The notes beneath the pieces are model-generated. The model was given only the letters and a program-made list of their open reading frames with translations, was not told the origin of the DNA and searched no databases. From positions 1 to 64,000 of IMG/VR virus record IMGVR_UViG_3300037448_000016: a stretch of DNA of 64,000 nucleotides. One strand, 5' to 3'. The translations under genes were made by a program, and so were the position numbers. How positions within the stretch are numbered: position 1 is the stretch's first letter; every line of letters starts with the position of its first letter. This document shows positions 46,117 through 63,435 of this stretch, piece by piece. This stretch comes from a virus (Duplodnaviria > Caudoviricetes).

Positions 46117-47189
46117 CAGTCTCTCCTGTGCCGGACGGTGACGGTGGCGCGCTGAAGCAGTTGCATCGCAACGAGACCGGGGCGGCCGAAGACGCGCCCG
46201 ACGTTGACAGCGACGAGCGCACCGGCCGGGGCGATCGCACCGGACATCTTCCGGATTCCACTCCGGATCATGTTGGCGCCGGGCGTAGCGGCACCGGCGA
46301 AATTCTTCCGGGCCTGCTTCAGCAGGGTGGCGGCCGGGGTGATGGTACCGGCGAACGCCTTCGGGACGACCTTTTTCAGCGCGCCAGCCGGGGTGATGGC
46401 ACCGGCGAATGCCCGGGTGACGACCCGGAGCGCTACGAGCGCCCCGGTCGGCGTGGTGGCGCCGGTGAACTTCTTGCCCGCCACCTTCACCAGCGTGGCG
46501 CTCGGCGTGATCCCGCCCGCCGCCGCGAGCGTCGCCTGCGACGGCGTCTCGGTGTCGTGCAGGTCCACGTTGTCGATGAAGAAGTTCTTCGATCCGGTGC
46601 TGCCGGAGTTGGTCGTGAAACCCCAATACCCGGCCGTGTTCACGGTGTGGGTGTCGGTGGTGTTGATCTGCCAGGAGGACGTCGGCTCCGAGCCGCTAGC
46701 CAGCCACGTGCGGGCCTTTAGCGTCTTCGTGCCGGTGCCGCCGAACACCGCGATCCGGGTCCGGACCGTAGTGCCAGCGGTGAAACCATGGGTGTAGGTG
46801 ACCAGGTCGTGGCCGGAGTAGGTCGAGGTCGTCTCGGTGTATGACAAGGTCATGTCGCCGGACGCGAGCGTGAACGCATACCCGGACGCGGTGTCGACGG
46901 CCGTGGGCGTCCGGGCCCAGACGGCGGGGAACTGGTCGTTCAGCACCGGAACGACCCAGTCGAACACGATCTCGCTGTTCAGCAGGGCCGACGTCAGCAG
47001 CCGGACCGACGTCCGGTTGCCGGTCACCGTGCCAGTGGCGATGCGGCCCTGGTTGCCCTGGATCGTCGCACCGCCACCGGTGCCCTGGTTCAGGGCGATG
47101 GTCCAGTTGGTCGAGTTCCAGGCCGCGCCGTTGGAGCCGGTGAACGTGTCCGGCACGGCACCGTTGGGCATCAGGTCAGTACCGGTCAC
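46116..47189 (-). CDS. putative virion fibre/lectin-like protein with C-terminal G-x-x-T-P repeats
   Basis: RBS GGAGGTGA; DTFTG..W..W, GYWG; repeated AGxITPAGAL. Confidence 0.65.
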   Translation of the reverse strand: MTGTDLMPNGAVPDTFTGSNGAAWNSTNWTIALNQGTGGGATIQGNQGRIATGTVTGNRTSVRLLTSALLNSEIVFDWVVPVLNDQFPAVWARTPTAVDTASGYAFTLASGDMTLSYTETTSTYSGHDLVTYTHGFTAGTTVRTRIAVFGGTGTKTLKARTWLASGSEPTSSWQINTTDTHTVNTAGYWGFTTNSGSTGSKNFFIDNVDLHDTETPSQATLAAAGGITPSATLVKVAGKKFTGATTPTGALVALRVVTRAFAGAITPAGALKKVVPKAFAGTITPAATLLKQARKNFAGAATPGANMIRSGIRKMSGAIAPAGALVAVNVGRVFGRPGLVAMQLLQRATVTVRHRRD

Positions 47190-58844: not shown

Positions 58845-58907
58845 TGCGTGCCCCTGCCGGTCTCGAACCGGCTCGACGGGTGCTCCACCGTCTTTAACCT
58901 AATGGGC
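58845..58907 (-). ncRNA. tRNA-like module (T-arm GCCGG-TTCGAGA-CCGGC, stemless D-loop)
   Basis: GCCCAT/AGGGGC acceptor-like stem, TAGGTTAAA, GACGG/CCGTC arm. Confidence 0.5.
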
Positions 58908-59084
58908 GCGTCCGCCCGGGGCTTGCGACCGGCGGTAGGCACCGGGAGGAACCGAAGTCCCCCATCGGGGAGACGCTATGCGCCCCGAACCCATACCACC
59001 GGCCCACCAGGCACTGCCGTCCTCGGTCTCCGGGTCTGGAACCAGGTTCCTTTACGGCTGGACCTACACGCGGCAGTGCTTGGC

Positions 59085-59159
59085 TGGTGGAGCCCCAGGG
59101 AATCGAACCCCAGTCGGTTTCCGCCGAGATAACTCGGCCCCCTGCTGCCAGCGTGCCCC
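59085..59159 (-). ncRNA. tRNA-Ala-like / tmRNA tRNA-like-domain RNA with encoded ACCA
   Basis: GGGGCAC...GG-TTCGATT-CCCTG-GGGCTCC-A-CCA; G3.U70 pair; no canonical D stem or 7-nt anticodon loop. Confidence 0.65.
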
Positions 59160-60145: not shown

Positions 60146-60176
60146 TTGACAAGCCCCTGACAAGGGCTGGTAAGGT
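60146..60176 (+). promoter_or_regulatory. promoter TTGACA-N19-TAAGGT
   Basis: TTGACAAGCCCCTGACAAG repeat. Confidence 0.6.
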
Positions 60177-60410: not shown

Positions 60411-60463
60411 CCCCCCCGGACCTACGGAACACGGTAGGCGGGCTGCGAGAGCCGCCGGGGGGG
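60411..60463 (+). repeat. diverged copy of the three-way-junction element
   Basis: CCCCCCCGG/CCGGGGGGG, CCTAC-GGAACACG-GTAGG, GGC-TGCGAGA-GCC. Confidence 0.55.
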
Positions 60464-60475
60464 CTAGTCAACGGC

Positions 60476-60505
60476 TTGACAAGCCGCTGACAAGCACGCT
60501 AAGGT
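60476..60505 (+). promoter_or_regulatory. promoter TTGACA-N18-TAAGGT
   Basis: TTGACAAGCCGCTGACAAG repeat. Confidence 0.75.
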
Positions 60506-60550: not shown

Positions 60551-61090
60551 GTGAAGTACCGCCGCACCCGGACCACTCGCACGGCCAAGATCGTGATCGG
60601 CCTTGCCGCAGCAGCAACGGCGATCGTGAGTCAGACACAGCACGCCGAAGCCGCCACTACCGACAGCGTGGCCTGGGGCAAGGCGCTCACGCTCTGCCAG
60701 ACCGTGAAAGCGTATGGACCGCACGAAGAGTGCGTGGTCGGCGCCACCGTGAACGCCACGGGGAGGGTGCTGACCGGCGACGACTATCACATGAGCAAGA
60801 CGGGGCTGGTCCTGGACCACGCCACCCGGCCGATCACGTCAACGGTGAGCAAGCCGACCACGGCGGACAGGGCTCGCATGGTGACGGCGAACGCCGAGTG
60901 CAAGAGCGTGCCGAACCATACCGTCAAGTGGTCAGCATGCATCACGGGCAGTGCGAACGCCAACGGTGGTGACACGGCTTTCGTGACGTCGGCTGACTGG
61001 TTCGCCATCCGGGTACGTCAGCACGTGGGGTACACATGGAAGGCGTACGCCGTCCACCACGCTCACGCTCTGGTCACGCCCCTGCCGTAA
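60551..61090 (+). CDS. secreted Cys-containing hypothetical protein
   Basis: Signal peptide (KYRR...AEAA), RBS GGAGG. Confidence 0.7.
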   Translation: MKYRRTRTTRTAKIVIGLAAAATAIVSQTQHAEAATTDSVAWGKALTLCQTVKAYGPHEECVVGATVNATGRVLTGDDYHMSKTGLVLDHATRPITSTVSKPTTADRARMVTANAECKSVPNHTVKWSACITGSANANGGDTAFVTSADWFAIRVRQHVGYTWKAYAVHHAHALVTPLP

Positions 61091-61096
61091 GGCACA

Positions 61097-61145
61097 GGCC
61101 GGAGGACCGCGAACACGGCGGTACGGCTCGACACCTCCTCCGGCC
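61097..61145 (+). repeat. 49-nt structured intergenic element, copy A
   Basis: GGCCGGAGG-ACCGC-GAACACG-GCGGT-ACGGCTCGACACCT-CCTCCGGCC. Confidence 0.85.
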
Positions 61146-61179
61146 ACTCGACCCACCAACGACGAAAGCGAGGCGCGAC

Positions 61180-61470
61180 ATGAGCGAACGGGTCAGCACG
61201 GGACGTGTCCGGCACCTGCTCAGCGAGGAGGTGGAACGGGCCGTCACGGAAGCGATCGAGTACGGCAAGGTACCGAGCAACGCCGTGGCTGCCACGATCG
61301 CATCGTGGTACCAGACGCCAGGGGGCCATGGGCTCACGTTCGCCCTGCTCCAACAGGGCAGCGAGGTGCTCCGCGAAGACCTGAGCGACGCCATCACGTC
61401 CGAGAGCGCCGAGAGCGCCGAGCACGACCGCCACATGTGGACTCTGAGCATGTGGATGGAAAGCCGCTGA
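61180..61470 (+). CDS. hypothetical protein
   Basis: MSERVSTGRV...; RBS GAGG. Confidence 0.7.
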   Translation: MSERVSTGRVRHLLSEEVERAVTEAIEYGKVPSNAVAATIASWYQTPGGHGLTFALLQQGSEVLREDLSDAITSESAESAEHDRHMWTLSMWMESR

Positions 61471-61477
61471 CAGCGAC

Positions 61478-61507
61478 TTGACAACGCACTGACCAGCACG
61501 GTACGGT
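61478..61507 (+). promoter_or_regulatory. promoter TTGACA-N18-TACGGT
   Basis: About 44 bp near-identical to the site at 62295. Confidence 0.8.
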
Positions 61508-61536
61508 TCAACCACCGACGACAACGAGGAGTGACC

Positions 61537-61818
61537 GTGAGCCACAGGTACGTGATGGACTTCCATCCACACGACGGAGCGCCGACCGGGCCGATGATGG
61601 AAGAGGTCAGCGAGAGCGAGGTTCTCGCCGGACGGTCCGGATCGGGTGAGGAGTTCCGCCGCCGGACCCGCAACGAAGGCGAGGAAAAGCCGCCCGTGGA
61701 CGGCGGATCATGGGCCGACCTGTACGACGCCGAAGCGTGGGACGGCGTGTCCTACGGCTACCCGGTCTACCGGCTCACCTGGAACCGGAACCGATCGATC
61801 CACATCGAATCCCACTGA
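61537..61818 (+). CDS. hypothetical protein
   Basis: RBS GAGGAG then GTG. Confidence 0.7.
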   Translation: MSHRYVMDFHPHDGAPTGPMMEEVSESEVLAGRSGSGEEFRRRTRNEGEEKPPVDGGSWADLYDAEAWDGVSYGYPVYRLTWNRNRSIHIESH

Positions 61819-61824
61819 ACCCCA

Positions 61825-61875
61825 GCCTCTGGCAGCGCACCTCGACGGCGCTACGGCTCGAATCCGGCCAGGGGC
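61825..61875 (+). repeat. structured intergenic element, copy B (51 nt)
   Basis: GCCTCTGGC-AGCGC-ACCTCGACG-GCGCT-ACGGCTCGAATCCG-GCCAGGGGC. Confidence 0.85.
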
Positions 61876-61907
61876 ACGCACACCACTCCGACAACGAAAG
61901 GCCCATC

Positions 61908-62123
61908 GTGATCAAGGTCATCGACTCCATCGTTCGGCTCAGGAGTTCCGTCAACGGAAACCCGCGCTACGAAATCACGTTCACCGACGGCACGGTTGCC
62001 CGTACTGCTTCCGATCACCAGTTCGCTACCTTCGTCGAGAACCAGGGAATGCGGAACGGCGACACGGTGCGGGTCGAGATCAACGGTAAGGGCACGATCT
62101 CGCACATGGAGCCGAAGTCCTGA
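61908..62123 (+). CDS. small OB-fold-like hypothetical protein
   Basis: RBS GAAAGG; S.NGNPRY.ITF.DG motif. Confidence 0.7.
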   Translation: MIKVIDSIVRLRSSVNGNPRYEITFTDGTVARTASDHQFATFVENQGMRNGDTVRVEINGKGTISHMEPKS

Positions 62124-62152
62124 CCACGGCAGCCGCCCCGACGACGAAAGGC

Positions 62153-62287
62153 ATGGCGATGCAACGGTATGACGTGCTAGACGACAATGGAGACGTCTTG
62201 GAGTCGTTCGATTCCTGGGCCCTGGCGAACATCAAGGCGCGAGAGCACAGATTCACGGTCCGCGACAACATGCCGGATGAGGACTGA
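62153..62287 (+). CDS. small hypothetical protein
   Basis: RBS GAAAGG; MAMQRYDVLDD... Confidence 0.55.
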   Translation: MAMQRYDVLDDNGDVLESFDSWALANIKAREHRFTVRDNMPDED

Positions 62288-62294
62288 CCAGCAG

Positions 62295-62324
62295 TTGACA
62301 ACGGACTGACCAGCACGGTACGGT
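62295..62324 (+). promoter_or_regulatory. promoter TTGACA-N18-TACGGT with three TGAC at 11-bp spacing
   Basis: TGAC at 62285, 62296 and 62307. Confidence 0.8.
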
Positions 62325-62358
62325 TCAACCACCGACGACGACGAAACGAGGCCACACA

Positions 62359-62673
62359 GTGAGAATGCATTTCGACAACGTCCGAGAGCGTGACCTGCGG
62401 GAAGCGTTCCAGGAAGCCGACATCCCGCACGCTTCGCTCACCATCAAGGGTGAGCATTCCAGCCGCTCGCACCGGACGGCTTTCGAGGTCCGGCTCACGG
62501 GTGACGGCATCTCCAACGGCCGGAAGACCCAAGACGGGCAGGACTACGCCGCGACGTACGACGAGTGGGGCGAGTTCATCTCGCGGCTCTACGACCGCGA
62601 CGTCACCGCGAAGATCGGCCCGTACACCTCCCGGGCCGACTTCCAAGACCGAACCGGCAGCCGGTACACCTGA
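62359..62673 (+). CDS. hypothetical protein
   Basis: RBS GAGG; ATYDEWG.F...L motif. Confidence 0.7.
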   Translation: MRMHFDNVRERDLREAFQEADIPHASLTIKGEHSSRSHRTAFEVRLTGDGISNGRKTQDGQDYAATYDEWGEFISRLYDRDVTAKIGPYTSRADFQDRTGSRYT

Positions 62674-62679
62674 AACCCG

Positions 62680-62728
62680 GCCTCTGGCACCGCGAACACG
62701 GCGGTACGGCTCGAATCCAGCCAGAGGC
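62680..62728 (+). repeat. 49-nt structured intergenic element, copy C
   Basis: GCCTCTGGC-ACCGC-GAACACG-GCGGT-ACGGCTCGAATCCA-GCCAGAGGC. Confidence 0.85.
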
Positions 62729-62785
62729 ACGCAAGGCAAGAGCGGAAGTCCTTGCCTCCCACCCCAACTCACCCAGGAGAGCACC

Positions 62786-63028
62786 ATGCGCTCACTGTCC
62801 AGCATTGCCAACGAGATCGAAATCCTATGGTCCGCGAAAGGTTCCGGCGTCAACTACGCGGCACGCCCCTACCTAGACGCCATGAAGACCCTGACCACGG
62901 TCGATGACCGGTACTACGACGACTCTGCCAAGTCGATCGTCCTCTACTTCCTGAGCAACGCTTCAGGGTTCCGGGGCGAACGCGCCAAGGAGATTAAGGC
63001 CGAACTGAAGTCCATGATCGGCAAGTAG
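62786..63028 (+). CDS. conserved small phage protein (A.PYL.AM..L...D.Y..D...SIVLYFL.N...RG..A..IK.EL)
   Basis: Recognisable motif; RBS AGGAG. Confidence 0.8.
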   Translation: MRSLSSIANEIEILWSAKGSGVNYAARPYLDAMKTLTTVDDRYYDDSAKSIVLYFLSNASGFRGERAKEIKAELKSMIGK

Positions 63029-63034
63029 AACTCA

Positions 63035-63083
63035 GCCTGGCGGACCGCGAACACGGCGGTACGGCTCGACACCGCTGCCAGGC
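63035..63083 (+). repeat. 49-nt structured intergenic element, copy D
   Basis: GCCTGGCGG-ACCGC-GAACACG-GCGGT-ACGGCTCGACACCG-CTGCCAGGC. Confidence 0.85.
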
Positions 63084-63115
63084 ACGCACACCACCCCGAC
63101 GACGAAAGGCGCATC

Positions 63116-63271
63116 ATGACCGAACAGGGCAAGTGGATCATGTGGGCCGATCCCAAGCGCGGCACTCAGCCGCTGGGAACGATCCTGTCCAGCGACGACG
63201 ACACCATCACGTACCAACCGCGTTTCGGGCGGCCGATCACGGTCAAGCGGGCCGAAGTGAAGATCCGCTGA
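63116..63271 (+). CDS. small hypothetical protein
   Basis: RBS GAAAGG; 51 aa. Confidence 0.6.
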   Translation: MTEQGKWIMWADPKRGTQPLGTILSSDDDTITYQPRFGRPITVKRAEVKIR

Positions 63272-63405: not shown

Positions 63406-63435
63406 TTGACAACTCCCTGACAACTCCGATAGCCT
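63406..63435 (+). promoter_or_regulatory. promoter TTGACA-N18-TAGCCT, leaderless into ATG 63442
   Basis: TTGACAACTCCCTGACAAC repeat. Confidence 0.8.

Follow-up and report, generated by a model that had tools for sequence, protein, structure and literature searches.

In mitochondria, transfer RNAs (tRNAs) lying within long transcripts reportedly define the ends of messenger RNAs (mRNAs) through ribonuclease (RNase) P and RNase Z, a punctuation credited to Ojala and the year 1981, and a tRNA-like fold, the mascRNA of MALAT1 (credited to Wilusz, 2008), is likewise said to define the end of that long non-coding RNA through the same two enzymes. Both are eukaryotic systems and differ from the phage elements described below in using full tRNAs or a full cloverleaf mimic. 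To our knowledge, tRNA punctuation has no counterpart in bacterial or phage mRNAs, and a literature search of incomplete coverage found no paper describing tRNA-like punctuation of such messages. Here we describe a family of short tRNA-like elements in the early region of a phage genome, found in a stretch of 64,000 nucleotides (nt) that we call the window (positions 1 to 64,000 of the IMG/VR virus record IMGVR_UViG_3300037448_000016). Five of the six copies stand 6 nt after a stop codon, and the elements probably mark, as judged from their sequence, the points at which the long early message is cut or comes to an end.

Several described systems share parts of this arrangement. In the early genes of phage T7, conserved intercistronic hairpins are RNase III sites at which a host-transcribed polycistronic mRNA is cut; those sites are irregular double-stranded hairpins of ~20 base pairs (bp), whereas the elements described here are helices of 9+5 bp or 12 bp with a T-loop. 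Plant mitochondrial t-elements are, like the phage elements, reduced tRNA-like folds with a conserved T-arm motif and an acceptor-like stem that adjoin mRNA ends; they are signals for RNase P and RNase Z, and simple acceptor-like stem-loops have been proposed to act alike (Forner et al, 2007; PMC1920247). They differ in being organellar, ~70 nt long and cloverleaf-like, with mapped RNA ends (PMC1920247), whereas the phage elements measure 43-62 nt, lack a D-arm, have a T-stem of 2-3 bp in the phage of the window and keep a fixed 6 nt from the stop codon. A bacterial mRNA followed by a tRNA close after its stop codon is found at secG-leuU (Mohanty and Kushner, 2008; PMC2241853), where a real tRNA lies 14 nt after the stop at a single locus; the phage, in contrast, carries a dedicated multi-copy mimic at 6 nt.

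The source genome (G000; 77,934 bp with direct terminal repeats, of which the window is the first 64 kb) holds six copies: the four of the initial annotation, a fifth just past the window and a diverged sixth. They are listed here with their covariance-model scores, the open reading frame (ORF) upstream and, in brackets, the spacer that separates them from its stop codon.

61097-61145, plus strand: copy 1, 74.9 bits (E 4e-16), 6 nt (61091-61096, GGCACA) after the TAA at 61088-61090 of ORF 60551-61090.
61825-61875, plus strand: copy 2, 51 nt long, 62.3 bits, 6 nt (61819-61824, ACCCCA) after the TGA at 61816-61818 of ORF 61531-61818.
62680-62728, plus strand: copy 3, 74.4 bits, 6 nt (62674-62679, AACCCG) after the TGA at 62671-62673 of ORF 62359-62673.
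63035-63083, plus strand: copy 4, 72.1 bits, 6 nt (63029-63034, AACTCA) after the TAG at 63026-63028 of ORF 62786-63028.
Genome 64643-64704 (L132:744-805), plus strand, past the window: copy 5, 63.8 bits, 6 nt (genome 64637-64642, CCGACA) after the TGA of ORF 64376-64636.
60411-60463, plus strand: diverged sixth copy, a weak covariance-model match (13.2 bits).

When the covariance model R1, built from the copies, was searched across G000, the element copies alone rose above noise, all on the plus strand. A weak match on the minus strand at 46880-46916 (18 bits, E ~0.08), a 9-bp stem around ACGG-CCGTCGACA-CC, lies on the coding strand of the structural genes, apparently within an ORF, and is probably due to chance. 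The window contains four exact occurrences of the elements' core 19-mer; allowing up to 3 mismatches yields 0.56 matches in shuffled sequence.

In copy 1, a 9-bp closing stem encloses an inner hairpin (ACCGC-GAACACG-GCGGT) and a miniature T-arm (GG-CTCGACA-CC). Copy 2 carries a compensatory change in its inner stem (AGCGC/GCGCT), a 3-bp T-stem (CGG/CCG) and a U.G pair in its closing stem. In copy 4, the T-stem (again CGG/CCG) is continuous with the 9-bp closing stem, forming a 12-bp stack with one G.U pair in the closing stem, and the inner loop of copy 5 bears an extra 7-bp hairpin. The minimum free energy (MFE) structure equals the proposed structure in copies 1 (z -3.4) and 3 (z -3.5), and the MFE structure of copy 4 has a frequency of 0.77 in the ensemble. 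The sixth copy forms a three-way junction: a 9-bp stem (CCCCCCCGG/CCGGGGGGG) closes it, and the two arms within are the inner hairpin CCTAC-(G)GAACACG-GTAGG and GGCT-GCGAG-AGCC. This copy has no stop codon upstream and keeps the GAACACG loop; all four such loops with a closing stem of at least 4 bp in the genome belong to the element family (the sixth copy and copies 1, 3 and 4).

In the alignment of the five copies, all 16 proposed pairs form in every copy, and in 7 of them both partners change. Of 500 column shuffles, 0 or 1 reached the observed pairing or compensation, and sliding the 3' partner by 1-3 columns left 31-49% of positions paired. The G.U pairs, at position 4 of copy 2 and position 8 of copy 4, would become A.C mismatches on the opposite strand; they fit the plus strand alone, and the fold therefore acts as RNA. 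The T-arm in G000 follows the degenerate form (C)GG-CTCGAMW-CC(G), with C in place of U54. The closing stem is followed by ACGCA in copies 2-4, by ACTCG in copy 1 and by ACGGG in copy 5, and no copy has a U-tract. Most of what the initial annotation had read from the letters is borne out by these results: the four positions, the 6-nt gap after TAA, TGA, TGA and TAG (which the ORF ends reproduce, and which copy 5 shares after its TGA), the outer and inner stems that change in sequence and stay paired, the likeness of GG-CTCGAAT-CC to a T-loop (real, though C replaces U54), the ACGCA after three copies, the lack of a U-tract and the argument from G.U pairs for a role at the RNA level. Its uniform length of 49 nt fails for copy 2, which has 51.

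The elements lie 83, 83, 106 and 81 nt upstream of the downstream start codons, and the reading frames relative to these starts differ, so the elements do not encode a conserved peptide. The gene downstream of most copies has a ribosome-binding leader and no promoter of its own. A second hairpin (7 bp, without a U-tract) lies downstream of copy 3 at 62734-62757, and a small additional hairpin, likewise lacking a U-tract, comes after copy 5 at genome ~64705-64730.

The spacer between stop codon and element is 6 nt in all five cases and varies in sequence; it is therefore the length that is kept. To place this distance in a wider frame, we mapped the first helix of at least 7 bp after 130 early-region stops in seven phages, using database gene calls for six relatives and our own calls for G000. 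The helix starts at offset 6 after 18 of the 130 stops and at offset 7 after 7, against ~1.5 per offset when the downstream sequence is shuffled, and four more elements with 6-bp stems in the relative L430 bring the total at offset 6 to 22. For late and other ORFs of G000 and the complete relative G002 (191 stops), the distribution is flat, with 3 at offset 6. Every element type follows the rule. When a ribosome has the stop codon in its A site and the spacer measures 6 nt, the first pair of the helix lies at ~+13, counted from the first base of the P site, at the mouth of the channel through which mRNA enters; structures that stimulate frameshifting use the same spacing. The fold thus sits as close to the stop codon as is possible without being melted by the terminating ribosome. 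The 6-nt spacing fits a constraint set by that ribosome, and, as a constraint, the match to the mRNA entry tunnel that the initial annotation had pointed out gains from the recurrence of the spacing across the clade and across all types of post-stop structure.

The elements also share a ruler with tRNAs. The acceptor-like closing stem stacks on the T-stem, and each of the 14 elements of the form G-NYCGANN-C (five in G000, nine in L430) counts exactly 12 nt between its loop and the closing stem's 3' end, with the division between T-stem and closing stem differing by subtype (2-3+9, 4+8 and 5(6)+7(6)). A model-based alignment needs no gaps in the 3' halves, whatever the subtype. Positions 61-72 of a tRNA have a 5+7 geometry, and genuine tRNAs in the relatives' contigs returned 5+7 in the same scan. 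The T-stem covaries, with GG/CC replaced by GC/GC and covariation extending to the additional pairs, and 0 of 500 shuffles reached the score of the 13-sequence alignment. The equivalents of G1:C72, A73 and C74 are nearly invariant. For the G000 copies and the type A elements of L430 the tRNA-like fold is the MFE structure, and for the others it lies within ~3 kcal/mol of it. A genome-wide scanner for a T-loop with coaxial stems, which misses bulged stems, gave 18 matches at L3=12 against 7.75 in Markov shuffles; because this background is too high, the ruler rests on elements found through homology or repeats, and since paralogues are not independent, it is ~six subtypes that carry the argument.

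The T-arm consists of a 7-nt loop of the TTCRANN type, closed by G53-C61, on a paired stem, in degenerate form in G000. A cloverleaf with D-arm and anticodon arm is absent: ARAGORN called no tRNA gene in the window, in L132 or in L430, and a search of Rfam 15 returned nothing at gathering score or at E<=10. The features of a transfer-messenger RNA (tmRNA) domain, G3.U70 and a 3' ACCA, are missing from the six elements and present in a separate RNA on the minus strand at 59085-59159. This 75-nt tRNA-like RNA, whose locus is devoid of ORFs and follows a minus-strand promoter, resembles the tRNA-like domain of tmRNA, with an acceptor GGGGC/GCTCC that contains the G3.U70, a TTCGATT T-loop and 12 nt from loop to stem end; it has a hairpin with a 4-nt loop in the place of the anticodon arm and is not called by ARAGORN. 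A second module of the same locus, at 58848-58942 (minus strand), shows the perfect T-arm CCGG-TTCGAGA-CCGG, after which come CAGGGGCAC and GCAGA in that order. Six relatives (L433, L431, G003, G001, G006 and G008) have real tRNA genes at the corresponding position, some of them with odd 6- or 8-nt anticodon loops, and such genes, regular or odd, immediately upstream of the early region are a possible source of the elements.

True homologues of the elements occur in one relative. R1 matched neither ten relatives picked by their terminase (65-89% amino acid identity), most of whose contigs stop before the early region, nor 14 loci encoding a DUF7178 protein. Six further relative loci were then fetched from a large protein collection via this protein, and among them the 74.6-kb contig L430 (DUF7178 65% identical) is the sole relative with R1 homologues, at cmsearch scores of 47.6 and 45.0 bits. 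These have the inner stem ACCGG/CCGGT and a mini T-stem GC/GC in place of GG/CC, a compensatory change. Neighbouring gaps of L430 hold a 43-nt subtype in four copies, with the T-arm CCGG-TTCGACT-CCGG, and three single-copy forms (GGCCG-TTCGATT-CGGCC, GCGG-ATCGAAT-CCGC and GGGG-ACCGAAT-CCCC). The T-arms of L430 have textbook form, and GG-CTCGAAT-CC of G000 is therefore the degenerate end of a real series. The tRNA mimicry that the initial annotation had offered among three alternatives finds support here, in T-stems of 4-5 bp with TTCGAYT loops, T-stem covariation, the 12-nt ruler, G1:C72 and the 3' A-C; the covariance-model search that it had proposed yielded homologues in L430.

Other relatives place different folds in the same positions. 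The syntenic region of G002 carries six plain GC hairpins of 12 bp with an ACAA tetraloop, a conserved TAGCATCCAA tail and G.U pairs that fit the plus strand; after four verified ORFs their offsets are 6, 6, 5 and 20 nt, and two more have a TGA 6 nt upstream. L433 and L434 contain a family of three-way junctions with a GTCATG loop and without the T-loop motif, in which 4+1+7 again makes 12 nt, and most plain hairpins in G002, L432 and L434 measure 12 bp. The 179-amino-acid protein encoded before copy 1 illustrates this exchange: its homologue is followed by a type B tRNA-like element in L430, by a hairpin with a AGCATCGAAGTAGC loop in L433 and by a GTCATG three-way junction in L434. Similarly, homologues of the 104-amino-acid protein encoded before copy 3 are followed by a promoter (L430), a AGCATCGAAG hairpin (L433) or a 12-bp ACAA hairpin (L434); a size-matched L430 protein that was considered as its counterpart is not homologous, and no relatives of the 104-amino-acid protein were found in IMG/VR. 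As orthologous gaps hold different folds, it is the position that is conserved and the fold that is exchangeable, and any explanation must let plain 12-bp hairpins replace the tRNA-like forms. A further family of post-stop hairpins has the conserved apical loop AGCATCGA(A/C)G(T/C)AGC (L429:269-320, L429:1379-1430, L433:5416-5451, L433:5923-5958 and L432:3400-3430). This loop echoes the TAGCATCCAA tail of the 12-bp hairpins, and the two may have a common recognition motif, AGCATCSAA.

Broader searches returned no further members. An exact 15-mer scan of IMG/VR gave 112 matches, all unrelated by their flanks, and a degenerate type A pattern had no match in the same collection. In gapped core-pattern scans of genome and metagenome collections, which bear on a REP-type repeat dispersed in many copies over a host chromosome, the matches listed were unrelated ones only, including a conserved Streptomyces coding region. 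The model R2 found nothing in 151 Streptomycetaceae genomes, a weak test in which few candidates were scored.

G000 is a high-GC genome (G+C ~66%) of an uncultured actinobacterial phage. The large terminase shares no more than 55% identity with those of Arthrobacter phages, and 50,697 phage records, searched by blastn in near and distant modes, contain no nucleotide match to this DNA. The minus strand carries the structural genes up to ~58.5 kb, and a plus-strand block of small genes, most of them without a family assignment (one is DUF7178), begins at ~60.1 kb with repeated promoters. A 1,257-nt Logan contig (L437, run SRR12917871) spans 60.0-61.13 kb of the window; its positions 400-1257 (858 nt read, ~60.28-61.13 kb of the window) match, the sixth copy and the beginning of copy 1 among them, so the same phage is present in a second public sample. 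The promoters and the leader that links elements to genes are as follows.

60146-60176, plus strand: early promoter (pattern scan).
60476..60505, plus strand: early promoter of the TTGACA-N18-TAnnnT type (repeat family D1/D4/D5 and pattern scan).
61478-61507, plus strand: early promoter (pattern scan).
62295-62324, plus strand: early promoter (pattern scan).
63406-63435, plus strand: early promoter (pattern scan).
Near genome 64740, plus strand, past the window: early promoter (pattern scan).
63084..63118, plus strand: C/A-rich conserved leader with a ribosome-binding site (ACGCACACCACYCCGACRACGAAAGG-N6-ATG/GTG; repeat families D2, D6 and D7).

These promoters start short operons, which the elements subdivide. 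The leader at 63084..63118 links copy 4 to the next gene, and the same leader lies 3' of copy 2 at 61876-61910. An ORF-less transcript of ~280 nt that begins at the 60146 promoter ends with the sixth copy, which stands 12 nt ahead of the one at 60476. The strong-consensus early promoters (TTGACA-N18/19-TAnnnT) hold a second TGACAA/TGACCA half-repeat in the spacer, which may be an operator, and each is followed by a (GAC)n-rich leader, CGACGACGAAAGG. A promoter within the elements was considered and rejected: the GGTACGGCTC segment resembles the -10 of the phage (GGTACGGTTC) and lacks the final T of TAnnnT, and there is no -35. The unpaired core CGGCGGTACGGCTCGACACC (61117-61135) nevertheless resembles the -10 and discriminator of the phage's own early promoters, CACGGTACGGTTCAACCACC (61496-61515), and the hairpin tail TAGCAT of G002 resembles the -10 of that phage (TAGCGT/TAGAGT); this likeness could stem from shared ancestry, from recombination between intergenic modules or from chance.

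Our first-ranked reading, to which we give a rough probability of 0.4, is that host RNase P and RNase Z read the elements as tRNA-like punctuation. They would be miniature tRNA-like RNAs (an acceptor-like stem, a reduced T-arm and an optional hairpin), transcribed within the early polycistronic mRNAs, and host enzymes that recognise the 12-bp acceptor/T-arm minihelix would cut at their borders: RNase P where the closing stem begins on its 5' side, an RNase Z-type enzyme after the discriminator A, or both. Such cuts would separate the cistrons and give each a different fate, with the upstream message ending a few bases past its stop codon and the downstream message beginning with, or just after, a compact element; the 6-nt spacer would let the terminating ribosome abut the fold unmelted. 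The invariant loop bases, the covarying T-stem, the ruler and G1:C72-A73-C74 are unexplained by stability and therefore point to factors that read an acceptor/T-arm minihelix. The comparison establishes the fold, its working on the RNA strand, the geometry shared with tRNA and the 6-nt rule; from here we infer recognition by RNase P and RNase Z, cleavage and the consequences downstream. Precedents exist. Hairpins made of an acceptor stem, T-stem and T-loop alone are cleaved by RNase P, as are some mRNAs and phage RNAs (PMC11143913); the Escherichia coli secG mRNA is parted from tRNA leuU by RNase P, which leaves 14 nt after the stop codon (PMC2241853); and t-elements direct RNase P and RNase Z cuts at plant mitochondrial mRNA ends (PMC1920247). 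A broader form of the proposal is tentative: throughout a clade of uncultured actinobacterial phages of ~75-80 kb, mimics that keep the 12-nt ruler and stand half a ribosome footprint (6 nt) past the stop codon may recruit RNase P and RNase Z to cut early transcripts into single-gene messages, with a spacing tuned to leave enough mRNA past the stop codon for normal termination, not non-stop rescue.

Several points weigh against cleavage by tRNA-processing enzymes. The G000 T-stem has 2-3 bp, its T-loop begins with C in place of U54, and there is neither a D-arm nor a CCA. Plain 12-bp hairpins or three-way junctions without a T-loop occupy orthologous gaps, so the shared function may need only a stable fold. 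The upstream secG message is degraded within 30 s of the cut (PMC2241853); by this analogy a cut upstream message would be unprotected and short-lived, an odd outcome for every early gene. We also searched the phage for an encoded CCA-adding enzyme, an RNase Z-like metallo-beta-lactamase and RnpA and found none, and no Rfam family, self-cleaving ribozymes included, was found in the equivalent gaps of the relatives.

The main rival is possible, though well short of probable: the elements may be generic RNA 3'-end elements, whose stable fold serves as a factor-assisted or partial terminator, an attenuator or a barrier to 3'-to-5' exonucleases, with the T-loop-like motif merely stiffening the fold and tRNA enzymes uninvolved. 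Two of the six copies (60411 and copy 5), and several elements of the relatives, immediately precede the next promoter, a place at which a transcript would be expected to stop, and the plain GC hairpins of G002, L432 and L434 in orthologous gaps suit such a role. Phage phiC31 offers a parallel, as its early-region terminators reportedly lack poly-U (Ingham et al., 1995, cited in PMC3993855): U-less plain hairpins without a T-loop follow its early genes gp4 and gp12, starting 7-11 nt past the stop codon, and the covariance models found no match on phiC31. As a separate observation, ARAGORN calls an 88-nt irregular tRNA-Gly(ccc) between the phiC31 early genes gp13 and gp14 (L435, 31424-31511), with a perfect T-arm and a 7-bp acceptor stem, which is absent from the RefSeq annotation.

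Against a generic 3'-end element stands the missing U-tract, while the same genome has at least four canonical hairpin-plus-T-tract terminators:

Genome stop 2265, plus strand: hairpin-plus-T-tract terminator.
Genome stop 76607, plus strand: hairpin-plus-T-tract terminator.
Genome stop 30706, minus strand: hairpin-plus-T-tract terminator.
Genome stop 12319, minus strand: hairpin-plus-T-tract terminator.

These four lie 11-18 nt after their stop codons and evidently serve the host polymerase; among the late and other ORFs of G000 and G002, canonical terminators start at 7-18 nt. Since the genome uses T-tract terminators elsewhere, the U-less branched folds form a separate class, and an intrinsic terminator in the strict sense (a GC hairpin with a direct U-tract) is rejected on the 3' flanks ACGCA, ACTCG and ACGGG. 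A generic terminator is also at odds with the mycobacterial RNA polymerase, which requires a U-tract according to one report (PMC3993855). Moreover, most copies precede a gene without a promoter, which efficient termination would silence, and a plain barrier leaves the invariant unpaired bases, the covarying T-stem and the 12-nt ruler across subtypes unexplained.

That the fold instead acts on translation, at the mRNA entry site, by tuning termination or recycling or by shortening the path to the next ribosome-binding site for re-initiation, we consider unlikely. The offset of 6 nt, kept in 18 (to 22) of 130 early stops regardless of fold type and without a peak in late genes, would suit such a device, as would the constant stop-to-start distance of 87-89 nt at copies 1, 2 and 4, where the length of the spacer is kept and its sequence varied. 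The same spacing, however, is equally the nearest position that a terminating ribosome tolerates, and there is no downstream gene to couple at 60411, copy 5, L430:1412, L430:1683 and L430:5886, which precede a promoter or close an RNA without an ORF. The downstream start is in the frame of the upstream ORF at copy 4 only. Read-through or frameshifting was rejected, as the stops are TAA, TGA and TAG, there are no slippery sites and the downstream frame varies.

Still less likely, in our estimate, is that the mini-tRNA is itself the product, either a decoy or ligand for a tRNA-targeting toxin, a CCA-adding enzyme or EF-Tu, or a small regulatory RNA. The conserved unpaired bases (the GAACACG loop and the T-loop), the presence of several copies in the earliest transcripts and the further tRNA-like modules in the ORF-less locus at 58.5-59.3 kb (minus strand), one of them with G3.U70 and ACCA, speak for a product, but a decoy would not be expected to lie immediately after stop codons or to be replaced by plain hairpins in relatives.

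A DNA-level recombination linker or attC-like cassette site that shuffles early genes, the third alternative of the initial annotation, is highly improbable: the early genes are mosaic among relatives (the 80-amino-acid gene at 62786-63028 lies elsewhere in G002) and elements flank small genes, but the G.U pairs work on one strand only, all copies point in the direction of transcription, some adjoin promoters and not cassette borders, a fixed distance from the stop codon has no rationale at the DNA level, and elements at orthologous positions differ in sequence between phages and therefore offer no shared homology for exchange. The attC assignment itself was rejected on the closing stems (GCCTCTGGC/GCCAGAGGC and similar), which contain no RYYYAAC/GTTRRRY cores; no search aimed at an integron integrase was made.

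If host RNase P and RNase Z do read these elements, punctuation of mRNAs by tRNA mimics would be a routine tool of phage gene expression, extending beyond organelles and eukaryotes, and the family would be the bacterial-virus counterpart of mitochondrial tRNA punctuation. Actinobacterial genetics would also gain a compact and portable part, 43-50 nt long, with which to separate cistrons. Both rules, of 6 nt and of 12 nt, make the idea testable by mutation and bear on how close a structure may stand to a terminating ribosome. Even if the elements are end-forming hairpins only, the sharp 6-nt rule that unrelated folds obey is a constraint not quantified before, and it is of use in the annotation of phage operons.

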